NCBI GenBank assembly: GCA_942493325.1
Contig: OW818689.1
Coordinates: forward strand, 2,664,583 to 2,728,582
Direction: 5' to 3'
DNA from: an uncultured Bacteroidales bacterium
GTDB lineage: Bacteria; Bacteroidota; Bacteroidia; Bacteroidales; Prolixibacteraceae
Length of the DNA stretch: 64,000 bases
The translations under genes were made by a program, and so were the position numbers. Positions 4,085 to 56,250 of this stretch are shown in pieces. The notes under the pieces are model-generated. The model did not search any database. It saw only the letters and a program-made list of their open reading frames with translations, and was not told where the DNA came from. The stretch's first letter is position 1. Each line of letters starts with the position of its first letter.

Positions 4085-4106
4085 ATAGTTAGATATATCT
4101 AACTAT
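4085..4106. promoter_or_regulatory. Perfect 22-bp palindrome, candidate MarR operator
   Basis: ATAGTTAGATA|TATCTAACTAT lies 28 bp upstream of the marR start codon (4057, minus strand). Confidence 0.45.
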
Positions 4107-4128
4107 CAAACAGGGACGAAAGAGCGAC

Positions 4129-4168
4129 GGGGAGATGGGGAGATAGGGTTATGGGGTGATGGGGCGGG
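4129..4168 (+). repeat. G-tract word repeat (G-quadruplex-type motif), locus B
   Basis: GGGGAGATGGGGAGATAGGGTTATGGGGTGATGGGGCGGG has six runs of G3-4 separated by 1-5 nt. Confidence 0.6.
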
Positions 4169-4225: not shown

Positions 4226-4346
4226 CTGGAGCAACACCTTTCATTGGAAGAATTCGTGTAATCTGTTATAATCCGTGTAATCATTTTAAGCAACACCTTT
4301 CAATGAAAGAATTCGTGAAATTCGCCCTAATTCGTAAAATTCGTAA
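4226..4346 (+). repeat. Two tandem copies of the M1 module (CTGGAGCAACACC + CTTTC-N3-GAAAG hairpin + 4x AATTCGT heptads)
   Basis: Copy 1a (4226-4282) is degenerate and copy 1b (4289-4346) is canonical. The same module occurs at 39172-39235 and 52190-52252. It ends 17 bp from the stop of the minus-strand deacetylase gene. Confidence 0.7.
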
Positions 4347-4362
4347 TATTGGAATTAGTTTT

Positions 4363-5073
4363 TTACGCCCAATGGCTCAGTTGTCTGAGGTTGTTTCCTA
4401 AACGTCGGAAAAGCTGAATTGTGGGAGAAAGGAACAGCCGGCGAACTTTTGGGAATTCGATTTTATTGAAACTAAAACCTTCGGCCTTTAATGCCGCGAT
4501 GGCACGCGGCAGCACCCAATAAAGATGATTCGCGGCCTTTGTCGAATCATGAAACGTAATAATACTTCCGGCCCGGGCAAAGTCAAGCACGTTTTGCAAA
4601 ACCTCCTCTTTGGAAATGTTACGGTTATAATCACAGGAGATCACATCCCACATAATTATTTTATATTTCCCTGACAAATACCGATATTGCGCCCGCTTCA
4701 GCCACCCGTGCGGCGGGCGGAAAAGGTTTGAACCGATCAGCTGATTGGCATGAACGATATCCTTGTAATAGGTTCGGTTATCAGATTTCAGACCCTGTAA
4801 ATGGTGATAGGTATGATTTCCAACCGCATGTCCCTCCTCAATAATTTGCTCAAATATTTCGGGATACCTGAAAACATTCTCTCCTACTGCAAAAAATGTC
4901 GCTTTAATGTCATTTTGACGTAACTGTTCTAAAACCCAGGGAGTAACTTCAGGAATGGGACCATCATCAAAAGTAAGATAGACCGTTTTCGAATCATCGG
5001 GCATCCGCCATATTGCAAGCGGAAACCACTTTGTAATCCAACGAGGCAGGTGAACCTGCGGTTTTAATCTCAT
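4363..5073 (-). CDS. Polysaccharide deacetylase (NodB-homology, CE4-type)
   Basis: 236 aa. NodB motifs are TFDDGP (YLTFDDGPIPE) and HTYHH (metal-binding His). Confidence 0.85.
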   Translation of the reverse strand: MRLKPQVHLPRWITKWFPLAIWRMPDDSKTVYLTFDDGPIPEVTPWVLEQLRQNDIKATFFAVGENVFRYPEIFEQIIEEGHAVGNHTYHHLQGLKSDNRTYYKDIVHANQLIGSNLFRPPHGWLKRAQYRYLSGKYKIIMWDVISCDYNRNISKEEVLQNVLDFARAGSIITFHDSTKAANHLYWVLPRAIAALKAEGFSFNKIEFPKVRRLFLSPTIQLFRRLGNNLRQLSHWA

Positions 5074-12005: not shown

Positions 12006-12035
12006 AATATTCTCTACGTTAAATACATGTTTAAT

Positions 12036-13713
12036 TAGAGTCTGTCTGTAATAGATAAAATATATGAATATCAGGCACATATCTTAGGTTTATCCAAATC
12101 TTCTTTGTATCTTGTTATCGAATTAAAGATAGCTTTTATAATGAAAATATTTAACGACCTGGTGTTGAAATTTGAAAAATCTGATTGGGCCAAGAATCCC
12201 GAGTTTGGTGTGATCGACACTATTCTTGAACTTCATCCTGAAATTTACGGCATTTTCAAATTCGATATAGCTGGCAATGAAGAGGTTAACAATTTTGGAC
12301 GTGGTGATACACCCACTGTTGAACAGATTGTCAGGGCTGCGATTTATAAAGAGTTAAAAGGTTATGACTATCGGGAACTTGAATATGCACAAAGCGATTC
12401 ACGGATTTGTGCTACATTTATTAAGCTTGATGAGCGCAAACCATTTTGTTTTCAGACATTCCAGAAGTTCATTTCCAGAATAAGTGAAGATACCCTTCAC
12501 AAAGTATTGGTTGAGCTGATTAAAATTGCCATTGACGAAGGCTATGAAGATATAAGCAAAATCAGACAGGACAGCACAGTTGTCAAAAGCAATATTCATT
12601 ACCCGACCAATAATTCACTCGTTTGGGACTGTATTCATGAAAGCCACCGTCTGCTGAGCCACCTCAAAGAAGAGGTCGGTGTACTTTCGTTTATCGATTA
12701 TACCAAATCTGCCAAAACCACCTATTTCAAGATAAACGTCACCAAGTCAAAAGATAAGCAAGCCGATCTCTTTAATAAACAGTTAGTTACATTCACAAAG
12801 GCGATCAATCAGGTTTCCAATATTATAAAAAAAAAGTTCGACAGCCTCGGCCTTAAAGCATACATTTTTATCACAGAACTTGAAGAACTGCTGCCATTGA
12901 TGGAAAAGGTTTACAGCATGACTTATCGGAAACAGATTCAGGACGAGTCAGTACCGAACGACCAAAAATTGTTCTCGATATACGAACTACACGCTGACAT
13001 TATTGTCAAGGGTGGACGCGAAGTACAATTCGGTCACAAGGTAAATCTGGCCACAGGAAAAAGCAACCTGATCATTGATTGTGTTATACCTGCGGGGAAT
13101 CCAGCTGATATTACTTTATTCAACCCTACCATTGACAGGGTGATAGATAACTACGGGATAACTCCCAGAGATTCATCTGCTGATGGCGGATATGCCAGTC
13201 AGGGAAGCTTAGATCATTGCAAATCAAAAGGTATAGTAAATATTGTATTCAATAAAGTAACAAAAAGCCTTAAAAATGTTGCCACCAGCCTCAATATGGA
13301 AACACGTTTGAAGAAATGGCGAAGCGGTATTGAAGCCGCTATTTCAAACCTCAAACGGGGCTTCGACTTGAGGATTTGTAACTGGAAAGGATTTAAACAT
13401 TTCAAAGCAAAGGTGATGTGGAGTGTCCTGGGTTATAACTTCAGGGTACTCACTAACATGACATTGTCCCGAATAGCGGGACTTGCCTGAAAAGATTAAT
13501 TGAGAGATTAGCAATTTTTATCACAACACTTTAGTTTGAACGCCCTTAAGCTTGTTATTATGTTAGTTAGATTGGTTGAAAATACTGGAGCATATTTTTC
13601 AAAGAAAAACACGAAAAGCAAAAGTTTGAACGCAAATCATCATCAAATCGTCGGGAAAATAAAATGCGTAGGACCAAAAAATCAAAATAAGGTGACTTTA
13701 CAGACAGACTCTA
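12036..13713 (+). mobile_element. IS element copy 1 (1678 bp, intact; IS4/IS5-superfamily DDE type)
   Basis: Perfect 16-bp terminal inverted repeats: TAGAGTCTGTCTGTAA (12036-12051) and TTACAGACAGACTCTA (13698-13713). It carries a single 449-461 aa transposase ORF. Confidence 0.85.
12141..13490 (+). CDS. DDE transposase (IS4/IS5 superfamily; exact family unresolved)
   Basis: ATG at 12141 (MKIFNDL). Catalytic-region patterns are RQDSTVVKSNIHYPTNNSLVWD, SSADGGYASQ and RSGIEAAISNLKRGFDL (the R..IE....LK signature). Confidence 0.85.
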   Translation: MKIFNDLVLKFEKSDWAKNPEFGVIDTILELHPEIYGIFKFDIAGNEEVNNFGRGDTPTVEQIVRAAIYKELKGYDYRELEYAQSDSRICATFIKLDERKPFCFQTFQKFISRISEDTLHKVLVELIKIAIDEGYEDISKIRQDSTVVKSNIHYPTNNSLVWDCIHESHRLLSHLKEEVGVLSFIDYTKSAKTTYFKINVTKSKDKQADLFNKQLVTFTKAINQVSNIIKKKFDSLGLKAYIFITELEELLPLMEKVYSMTYRKQIQDESVPNDQKLFSIYELHADIIVKGGREVQFGHKVNLATGKSNLIIDCVIPAGNPADITLFNPTIDRVIDNYGITPRDSSADGGYASQGSLDHCKSKGIVNIVFNKVTKSLKNVATSLNMETRLKKWRSGIEAAISNLKRGFDLRICNWKGFKHFKAKVMWSVLGYNFRVLTNMTLSRIAGLA

Positions 13714-13715
13714 AA

Positions 13716-15395
13716 TAGAGTCTGTCTGTAATAGATAAAATATATGAATATCAGGCACATATCTTAGGTTTATCCAAATCTTCTTTGTATCTTGTTATCG
13801 AATTAAAGATAGCTTTTATAATGAAAATATTTAACGACCTGGTGTTGAAATTTGAAAAATCTGATTGGGCCAAGAATCCCGAGTTTGGTGTGATCGACAC
13901 TATTCTTGAACTTCATCCTGAAATTTACGGCATTTTCAAATTCGATATAGCTGGCAATGAAGAGGTTAACAATTTTGGACGTGGTGATACACCCACTGTT
14001 GAACAGATTGTCAGGGCTGCGATTTATAAAGAGTTAAAAGGTTATGACTATCGGGAACTTGAATATGCACAAAGCGATTCACGGATTTGTGCTACATTTA
14101 TTAAGCTTGATGAGCGCAAACCATTTTGTTTTCAGACATTCCAGAAGTTCATTTCCAGAATAAGTGAAGATACCCTTCACAAAGTATTGGTTGAGCTGAT
14201 TAAAATTGCCATTGACGAAGGCTATGAAGATATAAGCAAAATCAGACAGGACAGCACAGTTGTCAAAAGCAATATTCATTACCCGACCAATAATTCACTC
14301 GTTTGGGACTGTATTCATGAAAGCCACCGTCTGCTGAGCCACCTCAAAGAAGAGGTCGGTGTACTTTCGTTTATCGATTATACCAAATCTGCCAAAACCA
14401 CCTATTTCAAGATAAACGTCACCAAGTCAAAAGATAAGCAAGCCGATCTCTTTAATAAACAGTTAGTTACATTCACAAAGGCGATCAATCAGGTTTCCAA
14501 TATTATAAAAAAAGTTCGACAGCCTCGGCCTTAAAGCATACATTTTTATCACAGAACTTGAAGAACTGCTGCCATTGATGGAAAAGGTTTACAGCATGAC
14601 TTATCGGAAACAGATTCAGGACGAGTCAGTACCGAACGACCAAAAATTGTTCTCGATATACGAACTACACGCTGACATTATTGTCAAGGGTGGACGCGAA
14701 GTACAATTCGGTCACAAGGTAAATCTGGCCACAGGAAAAAGCAACCTGATCATTGATTGTGTTATACCTGCGGGGAATCCAGCTGATATTACTTTATTCA
14801 ACCCTACCATTGACAGGGTGATAGATAACTACGGGATAACTCCCAGAGATTCATCTGCTGATGGCGGATATGCCAGTCAGGGAAGCTTAGATCATTGCAA
14901 ATCAAAAGGTATAGTAAATATTGTATTCAATAAAGTAACAAAAAGCCTTAAAAATGTTGCCACCAGCCTCAATATGGAAACACGTTTGAAGAAATGGCGA
15001 AGCGGTATTGAAGCCGCTATTTCAAACCTCAAACGGGGCTTCGACTTGAGGATTTGTAACTGGAAAGGATTTAAACATTTCAAAGCAAAGGTGATGTGGA
15101 GTGTCCTGGGTTATAACTTCAGGGTACTCACTAACATGACATTGTCCCGAATAGCGGGACTTGCCTGAAAAGATTAATTGAGAGATTAGCAATTTTTATC
15201 ACAACACTTTAGTTTGAACGCCCTTAAGCTTGTTATTATGTTAGTTAGATTGATTGGTTGAAAATACTGGAGCATATTTTTCAAAGAAAAACACGAAAAG
15301 CAAAAGTTTGAACGCAAATCATCATCAAATCGTCGGGAAAATAAAATGCGTAGGACCAAAAAATCAAAATAAGGTGACTTTACAGACAGACTCTA
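13716..15395 (+). mobile_element. IS element copy 2 (1680 bp), head-to-tail with copy 1
   Basis: It has the same TIRs (13716-13731 and 15380-15395). In every segment compared by eye it is identical to copy 1 except for A9->A7 in the transposase ORF and a 4-bp GATT duplication near 15250. Confidence 0.85.
13821..15168 (+). pseudogene. Frameshifted transposase of IS copy 2
   Basis: The poly-A run at 14507-14513 has 7 A, against 9 A at 12827-12835 in copy 1. This splits the ORF into 13785..14534 and 14575..15168. Confidence 0.8.
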
Positions 15396-15567
15396 ATTAA
15401 ATGATTTAAATAAATGCAGCATATAAAAGTGAATATTTATGAGCGGGGTCGGTGTGGCATTCAACCGCGGATTCTCGTATCGCCGTTCAGTACTGGCGGA
15501 CAGGTGCGCTCTCCGAAATCCGCTCCGCAACATGCACCAGCCATTATAGGCAGTGCTGACCCGTTCT

Positions 15568-20206: not shown

Positions 20207-20538
20207 TTTAATACTATTTAGGTTTACAATATTTTAGAATATCATAAGGTAAAAATACATTTTTTTGATTTTTAAAATATGTATTTATAAAGAAATTCCT
20301 GGTATGTATTTGACCTTCATTGTGTAGGTCTCCTGTATGGCAGAAAGACAATTAACTAACCCGAATGTTTGCAGAATTACAAAAACAATGCATCTCAATT
20401 TTTTACTTAATTTTGGTCTGAACAGTCATAAAAACCAACTTCATGGACAAGGTTAACAAAGAGATTTTACCAGTAGTTTACAGACAAATCAGGGTTCGGA
20501 TATCAGATTCAGATAAAACTCAGCATCACAGGCTACGG

Positions 20539-34724: not shown

Positions 34725-34888
34725 ATACCTTGTTTATCGTCGCTAAAGTAATAAAATTCAAATTTGCATCCGAGAAATATTTCAGACAGCAACATACACC
34801 TACCCATGCACACTCCTGCTGTTGTATAAAGTCAATGCTGGCTCCGCTATTAAACACAAAAGCCCCGGAATTTCTTCCGGAGCTTTCG

Positions 34889-34962
34889 CGGTCTGGACGG
34901 GACTCGAACCCGCGACCCCATGCGTGACAGGCATGTATTCTAACCAACTGAACTACCAAACC
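34889..34962 (-). tRNA. tRNA-Asp: tRNA-Asp (GUC), copy 1
   Basis: Reverse complement: GGTTTGG TA GTTC AGTTGGTTA GAAT A CATGC CTGTCAC GCATG GGGTC GCGGG TTCGAGT CCCGT CCAGACC G. Confidence 0.9.
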
Positions 34963-34988
34963 AAAATTATCTATTAATCGAATGTGGG

Positions 34989-35062
34989 CGGTCTGGACGG
35001 GACTCGAACCCGCGACCCCATGCGTGACAGGCATGTATTCTAACCAACTGAACTACCAAACC
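34989..35062 (-). tRNA. tRNA-Asp: tRNA-Asp (GUC), copy 2
   Basis: Identical to copy 1 and exactly 100 bp upstream of it. Confidence 0.9.
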
Positions 35063-35084
35063 AATAAATAAAAAACAAAAATGG

Positions 35085-35189
35085 CGGTCTGGACGGGACT
35101 CGAACCCGCGACCCCATGCGTGACAGGCATGTATTCTAACCAACTGAACAGAAAAATCTTACAGAAAAATCAAGAACTTTACCAAAGCC
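35085..35189 (-). pseudogene. Disrupted tRNA-Asp copy 3
   Basis: The 3' 65 nt (35085-35149) are identical to the intact copies. The 5' part reads GGCTTTGGTAAAGTTC (35174-35189) and is separated by a ~24-nt insert, TTGATTTTTCTGTAAGATTTTTCT. Acceptor pairing is broken. Confidence 0.6.
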
Positions 35190-37440: not shown

Positions 37441-38874
37441 ATGTTAAAAAATTACATTTCCAGGTTGATAATCGATGAAATAAAATTCGAACCCACTGAT
37501 GATCAGCTAGAAATGGCAGAGAAAATATCTGAATACATTACCAGCGATCAGCCAAACATGCTGTTTCTGCTAAAAGGATATGCCGGAACCGGGAAAACAA
37601 CAGCGCTCAGCGCTCTTGTTAAGGTACTGGGGGCATTAAAAAGGAAGACAATTATGCTGGCCCCCACCGGAAGAGCTGCAAAAGTTCTGTCGAGGTATGC
37701 CGGCAAACCCGCAACAACAATTCATAAAAAAATATACCGTCAGGAATCCATGACAGATGGATCCTCCAGGTTTGCTCTTGACCGAAACCTGCACAAAAAT
37801 ACCATTTTCATTATTGACGAAGCCTCGATGATTTCGAACAGCTTACAGGAAAACAACATTTTCGGTACCGGATACCTGTTGGCAGATCTGATCGAATACG
37901 TGATGTCGGGCGAGAACTGCAGGCTTATCATTGCCGGAGATACTGCCCAGCTTCCCCCGGTAGGCTTGAGCATCAGTCCGGCACTTGAAGAAGAGGAACT
38001 GAAATTTTTTAATCTGGATGTTGTAAAATGCGAACTGAAACAGGTAGTGAGGCAGGCGTTGGAATCGGGAATTCTTGAAAACGCGACAACAATCAGGAAT
38101 TTGTTATCCACTGAACAACCTGAAGGATACTGGAAAATTAAAACCTCGGGGTTTAATGACATCCGAAGAATAGGTGGTGCTGATCTGATTGAAGAACTAT
38201 CGAATTGTATCCACAAATACGGTATTGATGAAACAATTGTGATTACGCGGTCAAATAAAAGAGCCAATAAATTTAATGAGGGCATCCGACGATCAGTGCT
38301 GTACCGGGAAGAGCAGATTTCAACGGGTGACCTGGTAATGAATGTGAAAAATAATTACCATTGGGCAAAACAGACTGATGAGCTTGATTTTATCGCCAAC
38401 GGGGATATCGCTGAAGTGGTTAAAATACGTAAGTTCGAGGAAAAATACGGGTTTCATTTTGTGAATGTGACCTTGCGGCTTATCGATTATAAAGATGTTG
38501 AAATTGATTGTAAAATAATCCTGGATACCTTAACCATCGAAGCTCCGTCGTTAACCCAGGCCGACCAGAAGAGGATGTTTGAAGAAATAGCACAGGATTA
38601 TCCTGAAATCCATAACAGACGGAAGTTGTGGGAACTTATACGTGAAAATGAGTATTTTAATGCCTTACAGGTAAAATTTTCATATGCTTTGACCTGCCAT
38701 AAATCGCAAGGTGGTCAGTGGAAAGCCGTATTTCTTGATCACGGTTACCTCACTGAAGAGATGATTGACCGCGAGTACCTGCGTTGGGCTTATACCGCAT
38801 TCACCCGGCCCACCGAGCGACTCTACCTGGTTAATTTCAATAAGGAGTTTTTTGATGACGATGAACAGGATTAA
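37441..38874 (+). CDS. RecD-like (SF1B) ATP-dependent DNA helicase
   Basis: 477 aa. Walker A GYAGTGKTT, Walker B IFIIDEASM, IIAGDTAQLPPV, and C-terminal ALTCHKSQGGQW. Confidence 0.85.
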   Translation: MLKNYISRLIIDEIKFEPTDDQLEMAEKISEYITSDQPNMLFLLKGYAGTGKTTALSALVKVLGALKRKTIMLAPTGRAAKVLSRYAGKPATTIHKKIYRQESMTDGSSRFALDRNLHKNTIFIIDEASMISNSLQENNIFGTGYLLADLIEYVMSGENCRLIIAGDTAQLPPVGLSISPALEEEELKFFNLDVVKCELKQVVRQALESGILENATTIRNLLSTEQPEGYWKIKTSGFNDIRRIGGADLIEELSNCIHKYGIDETIVITRSNKRANKFNEGIRRSVLYREEQISTGDLVMNVKNNYHWAKQTDELDFIANGDIAEVVKIRKFEEKYGFHFVNVTLRLIDYKDVEIDCKIILDTLTIEAPSLTQADQKRMFEEIAQDYPEIHNRRKLWELIRENEYFNALQVKFSYALTCHKSQGGQWKAVFLDHGYLTEEMIDREYLRWAYTAFTRPTERLYLVNFNKEFFDDDEQD

Positions 38875-39236
38875 TGGGGCAGGGAGCATGGGGCAGGGAG
38901 CATGGGGCATTGATGAAAAAGAGAAAATGAGACAATGTGCCAATGTGCTAATGTGACGATGAGAAGATGCGATCTTGCGAAAAGGCGATAGGGCGAAAAT
39001 GCAGATCAGAGCATTGTAGAGACGCACGGCCGTGCGTCTGATGACCAATCAAACGGGACGAAGGGGGAATGGGAGAAAAAGAAGTGACCGGGTGACTTTT
39101 TAAGGAAAGAAAAGAAGCCCGTTAGTTTAAACTCTATTTTGAAATGCAGTCACCCGGTCACTTCTTTGAATCTGGAAGCAACACCTATATTTTGAAAGAA
39201 TTCGTGCAATTCGTCTTAATTCGTAAAATTCGTAAA
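38875..39236 (+). repeat. Composite word-repeat element, locus C (most complete copy; fills a convergent intergenic region end to end)
   Basis: Order of modules: G-tract words 38875-38910; GAGAAAATGAGACAATGTGCCAATGTG...GCGAAAAGGCGATAGGGCGAAAATG 38921-39001; 20-bp palindrome 39020-39039; GGGGGAATGGGAGAAAAA 39063-39080; 17-bp IR pair 39081-39097 / 39148-39164; M1 module 39172-39235. Confidence 0.75.
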
Positions 39237-40169
39237 TTAAATATCAAACCTGTCACCATCATTCGCCGGAAAAGTGTTCTGAAAAACAGTTCTTGCTTCA
39301 TCAACGAGCGGTTTTACACTTTTATAACGGCTCGAAAAATGACCGATGATCAGCTTTTTAACCCCGGCCTCGCGTGCAAGCTCTGCCGCCTGTAATGATG
39401 TGGTATGACAGGTTTTCAATGCCAGTAACTTTAATTCATGGGCAAAGGTTGCCTCATGATAAAGCAGATCGACATTTTCAAGTACAGGGATAATCTGTTT
39501 TCGGTAAACCGTATCAGTGCAGAAGGCATACGCACGGATCGGATCAGGTGGAAAGGTAAGCTCCTGATTCGGAATAATCTTACCTTCCGGTGTCAGGTAA
39601 TCAGCCCCTGATTTGATAAGTAACCTTTCTTTGATGGGAATTTTTAAAAAATTAACTACCTCCCCGCGAAGATGAAGCTCATGAAGTTTCTCCCTGAAGA
39701 TAAATCCGCAGCAGGGAATTCGGTGTTTCAGCGGAAAAGATTCTACACTAAGCTTTGAATCCTCGTAGATAACAGCCCGGCCACGAAAACTTAATGGATG
39801 ATAAATTACCCGGAAATCATCAAATTCATTCATGAACTTCATCAGATGATCCATCATGATCTTCAGTTCGGAGTGGGCATAAATGTGCAGCTCCCCTTTC
39901 TTCCCACCCAGAGCAATTGTCGAAATTAACCCGGGCAATCCGAAAATATGATCCCCATGCAGGTGAGAGATAAAGATATGGTTGATTTTACCTGCTTTAA
40001 ATCCGAATTTACGCAGCTGGATTTGCGTCCCTTCACCGCAGTCAATCAGAAACAACCGATCGTTAAGATTTACAACCTGGGAGGTTGGAAACCTGTCTGA
40101 GGTGGGAAGAGCAGAACTACTGCCTAAAATAGTCACCGAAAAAGGGAGCATTACAAATCTTTTTTTCAA
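39237..40169 (-). CDS. rnz: Ribonuclease Z (MBL fold)
   Basis: 310 aa. IDCGEGTQ and the metallo-beta-lactamase motif ISHLHGDH. Confidence 0.88.
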   Translation of the reverse strand: MKKRFVMLPFSVTILGSSSALPTSDRFPTSQVVNLNDRLFLIDCGEGTQIQLRKFGFKAGKINHIFISHLHGDHIFGLPGLISTIALGGKKGELHIYAHSELKIMMDHLMKFMNEFDDFRVIYHPLSFRGRAVIYEDSKLSVESFPLKHRIPCCGFIFREKLHELHLRGEVVNFLKIPIKERLLIKSGADYLTPEGKIIPNQELTFPPDPIRAYAFCTDTVYRKQIIPVLENVDLLYHEATFAHELKLLALKTCHTTSLQAAELAREAGVKKLIIGHFSSRYKSVKPLVDEARTVFQNTFPANDGDRFDI

Positions 40170-48676: not shown

Positions 48677-48926
48677 TTCTTTGTGGTCATTGCATGCCAC
48701 CTGGAAGGATAAAAAAAAGAAATAAGATTTTGTTGATAATATGCAAATTGGCAGATTTTCTCATCCTCTCATTTTCTCGTCTTCTCCCCTCGCCCTTTCT
48801 CCCAGTCACCTTGTTAGGATTTTGAATCTTGCGGCGCATTGAACGGATGAATTTCAATCGATTATTCTTTGCGGTCATTTGCGTGCAACCTGGAAGGATT
48901 TAAAAAATGGAAATAAGGTTTTGTTT
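48677..48926. repeat. Two R2 repeat copies (48677-48734, 48866-48926) flanking reverse-oriented word modules (48741-48810)
   Basis: R2 copies: TTCTTTGTGGTCATTGCATGCCACCTGGAAGGATAAAAAAAAGAAATAAGATTTTGTT and TTCTTTGCGGTCATTTGCGTGCAACCTGGAAGGATTTAAAAAATGGAAATAAGGTTTTGTT. The reverse complement of the middle reads GGTGACTGGGAGAAAGGGCGAGGGGAGAAGACGAGAAAATGAGAGGATGAGAAAATCTGCCAATTTGC. Confidence 0.7.
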
Positions 48927-48929
48927 GCC

Positions 48930-49128
48930 TGGACAAATCTTAGGGCTATTCTGATCTGAATCTTTTTGCATGGACTAATCATAGGGGTATGCCGGTCTGA
49001 ATCTTTTTGCATGGACAAATCTTAGGGCTATTCCGACCTGAAGCTTTTTGTTTGGATTCATCTTAGGGGTAAGCCGGTCTGAATCTTTTTGTTTGGACTC
49101 ATCTTAGGATTTAGGATTTAAGATTTGG
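48930..49128 (+). repeat. 41-bp tandem array, 4.8 units, with an 82-bp higher-order period
   Basis: Units start at 48930, 48971, 49012, 49053 and 49094 (the last is partial). Units 1 and 3 resemble each other (TGGACAAATCTTAGGGCTATTC.GA.CTGAA.CTTTTTG..), as do units 2 and 4 (TGGA.T.ATC.TAGGGGTA.GCCGGTCTGAATCTTTTTG..). Confidence 0.85.
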
Positions 49129-51848: not shown

Positions 51849-52254
51849 GCGGTGTGGCGATGGGGCGACATGGCAACAAGGCGATGGGGCGAAGATGAGA
51901 AAATGAGAAGGTGAAAAAATAATCGTTCCAGCTTGGTAATTTGCTAATTGGAGGAGAATTGGAAAAAGGGCGAGCACGTGAAGGTGCAGTCAAGGTGAGA
52001 AATTGAGTGACTGGGTGACTTTCAAAATAACGGATCAAACGCCTGTTGACTCTGAGTGACCGGGTGACTTCTAAAATAACGATCAAATGCTTTTTGATTT
52101 TGCTTAATCTATAAATGCAGTCACCCGGTCACTAGCCATGAGCTGACTTTGCCCAATTTTGTATTGCAGTCACCCGGTCACTTTTGAAGCTGGGAGCAAC
52201 ACCTTTCTATGAAAGAATTCGTGAAATTCGTCTTAATTCGTGAAATTCGTAACA
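51849..52254 (+). repeat. Composite word-repeat element, locus E (fills a convergent intergenic region end to end)
   Basis: GGCGATGGGGCGA words 51849-51892; GATGAGAAAATGAGAAGGTGAAAAAA 51893-51920; two forward (52006-20, 52055-69) and two reverse (52119-33, 52168-82) copies of AGTGAC(C/T)GGGTGACT; M1 module 52190-52252, ending 2 bp from the stop at 52255. Confidence 0.75.
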
Positions 52255-53181
52255 CTACAACGATACACTGATTAAATGCTCACTTTGCAGGAACTTTTCA
52301 CCACTCCACCGGTACGCGGATAATTGGCCTGAAACAACACAACTGTCGACACAACAGATATTTTCCTGGAAGATTGCAGGACCTTCGCCCAGACAATAGT
52401 GCCCGATGAAAACAGGTGGCTGACCGGGAGTGTAGGGTTCAAAAGTCGGAGCGATCTGCACAGGCACTGTATAATCGGGCAATATAAACTTATTCCCGAA
52501 CGAAAGCTCACGAAACGTCTTATTTTCAGGCGACTCCCACCAGTTCATCCGGAACATCGTCCTGCTCATTCCCTTACTGCATTTAACGATCAGGTCATTC
52601 GGACAATGGTACTCCAGACCTTTAAGTGTTTTATAAATTATTGTTGCTGCAGGATGATGCAGTTCGTGAATTGCTCTCAGAAAATCCTTCTTCAACCTTC
52701 CTTCCGGGAGGAAGCTCCTTAAAAAACTAATGTCACTATCATTCCAATAGGCGTGAGCGATCCTGATATGGCCCAGGTCGATAAAAAAAGGTAAGGTACG
52801 TAACCATTTCAGATGATCGCGCCATTCAGCCTGGAATCCTTTAAAGGCAGTAAGAGTACTCTGAATCTGGGTCCTGTTTCCTGCAATATGACGCGAAAGA
52901 TACATCCCGGAGGAGTCCTTTATATGATATAAAATTGCGCTGTATTCGTGATTACCCAATATGGTATGAGCAAAACCTGCATCAGTCATTTGCCTTACTA
53001 TCTGAAACGTTTCCCTTATTTCAGGTCCTCTGTTGATAAAATCGCCGATGAAAATGGCTATACGTTCGGGATGTTTCCATACCCCGTTCGTTTTCACGTA
53101 TCCCATCGTCTTCAGTAGTTTCTTCAAAAGCGAAGCGTATCCGTGCACATCACCAATTATATCATAATACTGCGTGCTCAT
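52255..53181 (-). CDS. Metallophosphoesterase (PrpE/ApaH-like Ser/Thr phosphatase family)
   Basis: Start taken at MSTQYYDIIGDVHGY (motif I, DxHG). Also GDFINRGP (GDxxDRG-like) and GNHE. The track start 53307 is probably an over-extension. Confidence 0.85.
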   Translation of the reverse strand: MSTQYYDIIGDVHGYASLLKKLLKTMGYVKTNGVWKHPERIAIFIGDFINRGPEIRETFQIVRQMTDAGFAHTILGNHEYSAILYHIKDSSGMYLSRHIAGNRTQIQSTLTAFKGFQAEWRDHLKWLRTLPFFIDLGHIRIAHAYWNDSDISFLRSFLPEGRLKKDFLRAIHELHHPAATIIYKTLKGLEYHCPNDLIVKCSKGMSRTMFRMNWWESPENKTFRELSFGNKFILPDYTVPVQIAPTFEPYTPGQPPVFIGHYCLGEGPAIFQENICCVDSCVVSGQLSAYRWSGEKFLQSEHLISVSL

Positions 53182-53319
53182 ATCATTCAAAATTAGAACT
53201 ATTTCGTTAACAATACCCGAATACCAGCACCAATTTAACTTTTCAGGACATAAAAAATGGCAGGACAACCACTTCAGGTTCGCCTGCCATCTTAAATACA
53301 ATTCCAAATAATCAGGAGA

Positions 53320-55998: not shown

Positions 55999-56250
55999 CT
56001 GGCTGTTGGCGACTGGCGGCTAGCCCGCAGTCCATATTAGACTGATTTCATTTTATATTTAATTTTTTCACCTTTTTCTGTAGGATTTATTCACTATTAC
56101 AACTGCACATATCTTTCGGGATAGTACCAATCAGTTGCAAACGCAACAATTAATCGTAAGACGCCAGTTGCAAGCCGCAAGTTGCAAGCTGCCAGCTGCA
56201 AGTTGCCAGCCGCCAGTTGCAAGCAGCCAGTTGCAAGCAGCCAGCCGCTT
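55999..56250. repeat. GCCAG-word repeats: imperfect 23-bp inverted arms (55999-56021 / 56208-56230) and a 14-bp-period tandem tract (56163-56250)
   Basis: Left arm CTGGCTGTTGGCGACTGGCGGCT and right arm AGCCGCCAGTTGCAAGCAGCCAG are 20/23 complementary. GTTGCAAG recurs at 56167, 56181, 56216 and 56230, with GCTGCAAG at 56195. Confidence 0.7.

Follow-up and report, generated by a model that had tools for sequence, protein, structure and literature searches.

A window of 64,000 nucleotides (nt) of DNA from an uncultured Bacteroidales bacterium of the Prolixibacteraceae (assembly GCA_942493325.1, contig OW818689.1, positions 2,664,583 to 2,728,582; "the window" denotes this whole stretch) carries several copies of an intergenic module, designated M1, that is composed of a short 5' segment followed by four tandem heptads of the type AATTCGT. 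M1 belongs to a family of heptad arrays encountered in many other genomes, and this family is specifically linked to genes of the GxxExxY protein family. M1 is probably a gene-less, one-armed (solo) member of this widespread intergenic repeat family, in which inverted arms surround a GxxExxY nuclease gene. It is a lineage-specific solo arm, and not a 3' untranslated region (3'-UTR) signal of the genes that it touches. No description of the array sequence, or of a link between arrays and GxxExxY, was found in the literature, and nothing on repeats was found in the literature on GxxExxY, PF13366, and PF05635; the array family is apparently undescribed.

M1 and the heptad-array family

The copies of M1 in the window are the following.

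4289..4346, plus strand: M1 copy A; private 5' segment (AGCAACACC at 4289-4297, and CTTTC-AAT-GAAAG), then four units, AATTCGT at 4310, AATTCGC at 4319, AATTCGT at 4329, and AATTCGT at 4338 (9/10/9 nt); outer end ..AATTCGTAA at 4346
4226..4287, plus strand: variant tandem copy of M1; CTGGAGCAACACC, then AATTCGT/AATCTGT/AATCCGT/AATCAT at 9/10/9 spacing
39172..39235, plus strand: M1 copy B; CTGGAAGCAACACC, an imperfect mini-palindrome, and four AATTCGT units at 39199/39208/39218/39227
52190..52252, plus strand: M1 copy C; CTGGGAGCAACACC, CTTTC-TAT-GAAAG, and four AATTCGT units at 52216/52225/52235/52244

The heptad is exactly AATTCGT throughout copies B and C, and in copy A it is so in three of the four units. 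The composite pattern AATTCGT-N2-AATTCGY-N3-AATTCGT-N2-AATTCGT has three matches in the window, all on the plus strand (at 4310, 39199, and 52216), and none in 100 shuffles, which confirms the first-pass annotation of this DNA in its description of three plus-strand modules and a tandem copy with four heptads at 9/10/9 spacing. The single heptad is not enriched outside the arrays (21 occurrences in the window versus 16 expected, 12 of the 21 lying within the modules). Repeat finding delineated one 58-nt family (4230-4287, 4289-4346, 39178-39235, and 52195-52252; 72-100% identity), in which identity to copy A amounts to 72% for the variant copy, 74% for copy B, and 93% for copy C, and alignment of the three M1 regions revealed a common, sharp 3' boundary directly after AATTCGTAA. 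The shared 5' segment and the sharp 3' end indicate that the M1 copies were copied as a unit rather than having decayed independently. The copy at 4226 had been called degenerate; it is indeed a tandem copy, but the 9/10/9 spacing is kept and units of the types AATCTGT and AATCCGT occur elsewhere in the superfamily, so that 4226-4287 represents a variant array and not simple decay.

A mini-hairpin had also been proposed for M1. The CTTTC-N3-GAAAG palindrome is weak and not a meaningful structure: on either strand the solo M1 folds no better than shuffled sequences (z +1.1 to +2.1), and the minus-strand RNA of copy B (-4.2 kcal/mol) and that of copy C (-5.4 kcal/mol) are weaker in fold than shuffles. 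A search of the window with Rfam 15 returned tRNAs only, with relaxed searches adding just sub-threshold matches to miRNA-like hairpins, and M1 could not be assigned to any RNA family in that release. No inverted partner arm is present for the window copies, as no ACGAATT cluster occurs near any of them.

A scan with AATTCGTNNAATTCGNNNNAATTCGT (20 fixed bases) of one representative genome per species, covering 596 Gb on two strands with approximately one chance match expected, recovered at least 119 stretches. Judged from the record titles of the matches listed, these arrays occur in at least eight bacterial phyla. Among the same matches are approximately 92 Bacteroidota (including one Ignavibacteriales), 10 Planctomycetota, 8 Chloroflexota, 4 Cloacimonadota, 2 Calditrichia, and one each from WOR-3, Acidobacteriota, and Bacillus, and the Bacteroidota comprise Chitinophagaceae, Saprospiraceae, Mucilaginibacter, Prevotella and other Bacteroidales, Prolixibacteraceae, and Flavobacterium. 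The 5' segment of M1 was found in none of the at least 119 array stretches (among the matches listed), and a metagenome scan with this segment joined to the first heptad (AGCAACACCN{7,8}GAAAGAATTCGTG) gave no matches. Since the 5' segment was found nowhere else, M1 can be described as a private 5' segment fused to a widespread array. As a separate observation, 15 array matches were located in viral contigs, in which the patterns used detected no GxxExxY relatives.

An arm of the family consists of two to six tandem units of 9-10 nt with a conserved core, which is AATTCGT(G) in the lineage of the window (the AATNNGTG core); the unit types of the different lineages include AATTCGTG, AATTCGCG, AATCTGTG, AATCCGTG, AATTTGTG, AATCTGCG, GATTCGTG, and AATTAGTG. 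Outside the selecting pattern, core start-to-start distances of 9 and 10 nt were counted in 128 and 74 cases, respectively. The same two distances dominate even in loci that were chosen by protein and without any DNA selection (for AATTCG, 48 distances of 9 nt and 40 of 10 nt; for AATCTG, 41 and 21, respectively), which bears out the earlier description of a conserved array with about one unit per helical turn. Such spacing fits repeated protein-binding sites, and a reading as an array bound on one face of the DNA is plausible from the sequence pattern.

Three forms were encountered in other genomes: inverted pairs (hairpins), solo arms, and arms around a GxxExxY gene. An inverted partner often lies upstream of the array, and the loops of the inverted pairs fall into two groups, one of 1-120 nt (approximately 45 pairs, forming hairpins) and one of roughly 380-580 nt; four pairs with loops of 411-546 nt enclose a GxxExxY gene. 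The gene-less pairs are hairpins of 57-206 nt overall, and the paired form can be a long and near-perfect hairpin, as in L012:1290-1400 (48-bp stem, -58 kcal/mol, z = -13). Among 121 arrays of at least three units, 11 lay inside crude open reading frame (ORF) calls and 110 were intergenic; 61 of these 110 intergenic arrays were solo. Gene-less inverted pairs and single arms far outnumber arms around genes.

GxxExxY genes enclosed by inverted arms

The association with a gene was first apparent from the array flanks, where C-termini of the type ..NFG..SL.YKR.. were seen to run into arrays, and the corresponding ORFs proved to encode GxxExxY proteins (126-139 bits for TIGR04256 and 114-132 bits for PF13366). 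A local profile detected 15 GxxExxY ORFs in 13 of the 119 matches listed; most of these ORFs were preceded, immediately ahead of the start, by (ACGAATT)n and followed by (AATTCGT)n that set in at or within the stop codon. When ORFs of 70-200 amino acids (aa) with an inverted cluster upstream and a forward cluster downstream were collected, 19 of the 20 encoded GxxExxY proteins, the remaining one being a spurious ORF.

The association was also assessed from the protein side, using 80 metagenome loci that were fetched by protein patterns alone (525 of 600 candidates confirmed). Among the 76 genes whose flanks were long enough, inverted repeats between the flanks scored at least 12 for 52, and for none when the flanks were shuffled. 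The unit type matches between the left and right arms of each cassette and differs between lineages, and in 22 of 78 genes a unit begins inside the stop codon. The layouts vary, with the gene placed within one pair, between two complete hairpins, or in a nested arrangement such as that of L159, (ACGAATT)3-gene-(AATCTGTG)3-(AATTCGTG)3. These cassettes recur in polysaccharide operons (rfbB|rfbA, gmd|fcl, and wzm|wzt; loci L061, L082, L098, L127-L138, L151, L152, L159, and L196), a recurrence to which the sampling of orthologous sites may contribute.

The enclosed protein is small, about 125-126 aa. Alignment of eight diverse members revealed the shared residues G..E..Y, E40, D70, E80-x-K82, Q94, Y98, and NFG, of which D..ExK corresponds to the PD-(D/E)XK nuclease signature. 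No solved structure was related to GxxExxY by sequence. The predicted model of one member, P0121 (predicted local distance difference test, pLDDT, 91.5), had Cas4 SSO0001 as its best PDB match (E = 1.7e-4, template-modelling score 0.54), followed by lambda exonuclease, LHK-Exo, the nuclease domains of AdnAB/AddAB, and MGME1. GxxExxY is a PD-(D/E)XK nuclease, and its predicted fold most resembles those of Cas4, lambda exonuclease, and RecB-type nucleases. In the survey of Steczkiewicz et al. 2012 (PMC3424549), the function of PF13366 is given as 'Unknown', and transfers between divisions are noted to have occurred multiple times.

In the proposed scheme, the full form of the element consists of two inverted arms around the small GxxExxY gene, with the right arm often beginning in its stop codon. 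In the window, a heptad arm is fused to a lineage-private segment (CTGGRAGCAACACC and the mini-palindrome), and at loci B and C this arm is fused further to a GTGACC hairpin module, M1 having been copied to at least three intergenic sites. The units, one per helical turn, would be bound by a protein coating one face of the DNA, for which the GxxExxY nuclease is the best candidate. Arms and pairs may be spread or maintained by the GxxExxY protein in trans, and the window copies would be carried along passively, any effect on the neighbouring genes being incidental at most.

Several findings weigh against this scheme. The window itself contains no GxxExxY gene (six-frame ORF search, best E = 1.5), and a profile search of the window gave no GxxExxY fragment signal at M1; the private 5' segment was absent from the array stretches of other genomes and from the metagenomes scanned. 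Few arrays touch a GxxExxY gene, with approximately 15 ORFs across the 119 matches listed, and a GxxExxY C-terminus was present on the inner side of 5 of 145 strict arrays, with no short remnants at most solo arrays; since only a minority of arrays touch the gene, the gene could prefer to sit among arrays rather than make them. An identical GxxExxY protein, P0143, is located between rfbB and rfbA in 10 of the 10 places shown (25 contigs), and this constant position looks like vertical inheritance and not like recent movement. Target-site duplication was not found at 44 hairpins (28 had no flanking duplication and the others had 1-4 nt with no preferred length, the element ends being crudely defined), and no transposition event was observed. 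In the 126-aa protein, no separate domain for DNA recognition is obvious. Finally, the metagenome query was a three-sequence alignment, and the sample, consisting of relatives of three array-flanked genes, represents one subfamily and not the whole family.

Two more specific derivations were considered and found unsupported. In one frame, the translation ..LGATPFYERI.. of the M1 5' segment resembles NFGxxSLxYKRI, and the segment was considered as a decayed GxxExxY C-terminus, but no M1 peptide ranked among the top 25 matches of a profile scan over all 18-aa segments of the window, and the top matches themselves were by chance (for example LLNFGLNS at 20379). That solo arrays in general are decayed cassettes was likewise unsupported, on the low frequency of C-termini and the lack of short remnants given above.

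Placement and turnover of the arrays

All three M1 copies end close to a minus-strand gene, and the identities proposed earlier for these neighbours, which are not part of the element, were confirmed.

4363..5073, minus strand: polysaccharide deacetylase gene; stop at 4363-4365 faces the outer end of copy A
39237..40169, minus strand: RNase Z (rnz) gene, 328 bits; stop at 39237-39239 faces the outer end of copy B
52255..53307, minus strand: metallophosphoesterase gene; stop at 52255-52257 faces the outer end of copy C

The gaps from module end to stop codon are 16, 1, and 2 nt for copies A, B, and C, and those from the last heptad to the stop 18, 3, and 4 nt; the 5' side of the arrays lies 252-367 nt from a gene. 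The closeness to minus-strand stops reported for the window was thus verified, and closeness to gene ends is also seen in other genomes, where approximately 40 arrays are separated by no more than 20 nt from the stop codon of an ORF on the other strand. This arrangement is what would be expected if the heptad array were a cis-acting 3'-UTR signal, either as a set of repeated RNA-binding sites or as a DNA array controlling mRNA termination or stability, and the first-pass annotation had placed the module in the 3' UTR of the touched genes.

The placement of the solo arrays in other genomes does not agree with such a function. In 46 of the 61 solo arrays (p = 9e-5), the distance to a gene was shorter from the 3' (outer) end than from the 5' end; the outer end was within 20 nt of a gene in 23 of the 61, versus 10.3 expected under uniform placement. 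At this distance, however, starts were about as frequent as stops (10 and 13, respectively), and in co-directional intergenic regions 19 solo arrays were in sense and 20 in antisense orientation. Co-directional, convergent, and divergent regions held 39, 12, and 10 solo arrays, roughly in background proportion. The bias of the outer end is therefore toward gene boundaries, not toward stop codons or one transcript strand. Random placement and orientation, or spacing that is not conserved, had been named as evidence against the earlier proposal; orientation relative to transcription did prove random, but placement and spacing are not. The gene-boundary bias agrees with the arrangement of the cassettes, whose loop or gene is located on the inner side of the arms.

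Comparison of orthologous sites was informative for copy B. By its RNase Z homologues, the window belongs to the Bacteroidia, close to Prolixibacteraceae/Mariniphaga; its MarR protein had no identical entry on record. The convergent pair of rnz and a PIF1-type helicase gene is kept in relatives, and the gap between the two stops measures 5 nt in L122/L123 (84% identity) and 145 nt in L124 (80% identity), versus 362 nt in the window. In L124, the site corresponding to copy B is filled by a hairpin that is the same kind of element but is built of a different unit (L124:4916-5060; GGCACATTAG / CTAATGTGG). The closest RNase Z homologue, at 95%, is from a Bacteroidales metagenome-assembled genome (GCA_038240855.1), in which the 33 nt past the rnz stop are without heptads and the contig then ends in sequence resembling the period-8 repeats of the window; among the array matches of the genome scan, this relative's assembly is represented by an M1-like array at another place (L071), 47 nt upstream of where a gene starts. 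M1 is thus missing after rnz in relatives at 80-95% protein identity, and these differences indicate that the repeat content of the rnz site turns over quickly and that M1 is not a conserved part of rnz. As an additional observation, two independent assemblies of the 95% relative (L120 and L121) both break 33 nt past the rnz stop, in repeat-like sequence (caaattggcactg), which suggests that such repeats fragment short-read assemblies.

Moreover, neither strand of M1 has an RNA structure or an Rfam family match, and copies B and C lack on the mRNA strand the stable stem-loop of an intrinsic terminator or 3'-UTR hairpin. A 3'-UTR signal is largely refuted by the orientation and orthology data, and is regarded as highly improbable.

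A second possibility is that the arrays bind a conserved host protein, for example a nucleoid-associated or boundary protein, and that GxxExxY genes insert or survive at such sites. The occurrence of one unit per helical turn, conserved across phyla, would suit this explanation, as would the lack of a GxxExxY gene near most arrays, the location of outer ends at gene boundaries of all kinds, and the presence of PF05635 genes in similar short-unit inverted-repeat sites. It is nevertheless distinctly unlikely, because the unit varies by lineage and yet is matched between the arms, which is hard to reconcile with one conserved protein, and because arrays are gained and lost between close relatives and 19 of the 20 arm-enclosed ORFs encode GxxExxY proteins.

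Alternatively, the functional form could be the paired hairpin acting at the RNA level in operons, as a site for a double-strand-specific RNase or as a stabiliser of the upstream mRNA, similar to REP (repetitive extragenic palindrome) or rRNA intervening sequences. M1 and other solo arms would then represent inert leftovers that have lost one arm. The paired forms are near-perfect hairpins, as exemplified by the 48-bp stem of L012, many of them lie between genes of the same operon (rfbB|rfbA, gmd|fcl, and wzm|wzt), and M1 itself is unstructured and not conserved at orthologous sites. The orientation data have no bearing on this explanation, as a hairpin is identical when read on either strand. 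The explanation leaves the unit periodicity and the link with a nuclease gene unaccounted for, and the defined 5' segment and sharp 3' end of the M1 copies point to copying as a unit; it is considered unlikely.

Comparison with known repeat systems and implications

A solo arm of a GxxExxY-linked family has a close parallel in the REP/REPIN-RAYT systems (Bertels and Rainey 2011, PMC3116915; Nunvar et al., Di Nocera et al., PMC3686654, PMC3733652), in which RAYT denotes the REP-associated tyrosine transposase. Both comprise intergenic singlets and inverted hairpin doublets, with many gene-less copies per genome that lie mostly outside coding sequence, and both include one small nuclease-type gene flanked by inverted repeats. 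The inverted doublets typical of REPINs are represented in the array family in other genomes (approximately 45 pairs) and not in the window. The systems differ in that RAYT is an HUH/Y1 transposase, whereas the arrays enclose the PD-(D/E)XK protein GxxExxY (PF13366/TIGR04256) as their only gene family; in that REP is an imperfect palindrome of 20-40 bp with a GTAG/CGTC tag, whereas the array is a row of non-palindromic 9-10-nt units; and in that the array unit is nearly identical in many phyla. Furthermore, RAYTs are usually single-copy and vertically inherited, whereas GxxExxY genes are multi-copy and have been judged horizontally transferred (Steczkiewicz et al. 2012, PMC3424549).

With their small size (57-206 nt), lack of coding capacity, inverted ends, and many intergenic copies, the gene-less pairs also resemble miniature inverted-repeat transposable elements (MITEs) with terminal inverted repeats. 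A classical MITE was rejected, as target-site duplication was not found at the 44 elements, and no DDE transposase was identified between arms up to 1.6 kb apart, GxxExxY being the sole recurring enclosed gene, although the few other arm-enclosed ORFs were not run against family libraries. In addition, the array ends are tandem sub-repeats, and the window copies are one-armed. Iterons share the direct repeats with about one helical turn between cores, but they measure 17-22 bp; the array units are much shorter, dispersed over the chromosome, often in inverted pairs, and have no adjacent replication gene. The cyanobacterial STRR-type (short tandemly repeated repetitive) heptamer repeats have a contiguous 7-nt period, unlike the M1 family with its period of 9-10 nt and variable spacers.

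In 23S rRNA intervening sequences with a PF05635 ORF, a small gene of unknown role is likewise looped between inverted flanks. The arrays differ by their location between protein-coding genes and not in rRNA helices, and by flanks that are unit arrays. PF05635 genes occur in the same operons as GxxExxY cassettes, with presence or absence varying between close strains. In polysaccharide operons that are otherwise identical (L221-L230, approximately 900-1390), the space between ugd and rfbB either contains a gene for a PF05635 (23S rRNA intervening-sequence) protein, flanked by its own short-unit inverted repeats and of 123 aa or truncated to 70-81 aa, or lacks such a gene; in these operons the GxxExxY gene P0143 always lies between rfbB and rfbA. 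Between the states with and without the PF05635 gene, the intergenic region differs as a whole, and no clean insertion junction could be read from the comparison.

The M1-bearing intergenic regions are mosaics of several module types, of which the following lie directly 5' of copies B and C, respectively.

39083..39162, no strand assigned: hairpin module GTGACCGGGTGAC...GTCACCCGGTCAC (GTGACC hairpin)
52006..52182, no strand assigned: hairpin module as above, its arms duplicated (left, 52006 and 52055; right, 52117 and 52166)

Alignment revealed that the hairpin module and M1 form a composite of approximately 155 nt common to loci B and C. The hairpin matched an Rfam plastid 3'-UTR hairpin far under threshold (31.6 versus 55.2 bits). 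A further module, TCAAAC(A/G)GGGACGAA(A/G)G, occurs at 4106-4122 and 39049-39065, that is, in two of the three M1-bearing intergenic regions. In having module types in varied order (M1 with the GTGACC hairpin, period-8 arrays, and the TCAAACNGGGACGAA module), the window resembles bacterial interspersed mosaic elements (BIMEs) and other enterobacterial mosaic elements, with which there is no sequence relation, the window modules being rows of 7-10-nt units. For BIMEs, host-factor sites (IHF, gyrase) are known.

Rows of 7-8-nt units (GGCATGG, GAAAATGA, CAATGTGC, GCGAAAAG, and GGGGAGAT) were observed in the window at 38874-38999 (plus strand), 839-1050 (read on the minus strand), 51850-51920 (plus strand), 48739-48802, and 4129-4164. 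The start of such a row coincides with the stop codon of the gene on its own strand or is about 20 nt or less away from it (helicase, 38872-38874; ATPase, 1053; guaA, 51848), and the arrays at 38874-38999 and 839-1050 are homologous composites. These rows may be further unit types of the kind of element to which M1 belongs. Other repeats in the window include direct-repeat pairs at 12032-15399 (segments 12032-12331, 12826-13125, and 13562-13717, plus partners), which are 1678-1682 nt apart and 98-100% identical and look like a tandem duplication of approximately 1.68 kb; one tRNA gene present three times in tandem at 34888-35160 with a spacing of approximately 100 nt, the third copy being truncated (Rfam model positions 10-63 only); a 41-nt tandem repeat of 4.5 copies at 48924-49128; and a GCAAGTTGCAAGC-rich repeat of 14/21/35 nt at 56145-56248.

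A broader proposal is that GxxExxY nucleases and unit arrays together form an unrecognised nuclease-driven repeat system, selfish or domesticated, that would be the PD-(D/E)XK counterpart of REPIN-RAYT; this is put forward tentatively, as a possibility that is less probable than not. The Cas4/RecB-like nuclease would bind the 9-10-nt units and act on the hairpin or cruciform formed by inverted arms, and this action would spread or maintain the gene-less pairs and solo arms in the intergenic DNA of many phyla. The period 7-8 arrays of the window and the PF05635 cassettes would then be sister systems.

For annotation, M1-like modules are to be masked as repeats and not taken for regulatory sites of the neighbouring gene. 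In Bacteroidota, Planctomycetota, Chloroflexota, and further phyla, the link accounts for a type of intergenic repeat that fragments assemblies and takes up the room between genes. GxxExxY (PF13366 / TIGR04256), a very common small protein family of unknown function, is tied to a specific DNA partner in which unit, spacing, and inverted layout are conserved, and thereby gains a testable DNA substrate. If the nuclease indeed acts on the arrays, these would constitute a second REPIN-RAYT-like system that is independent of the first and based on a different enzyme fold.

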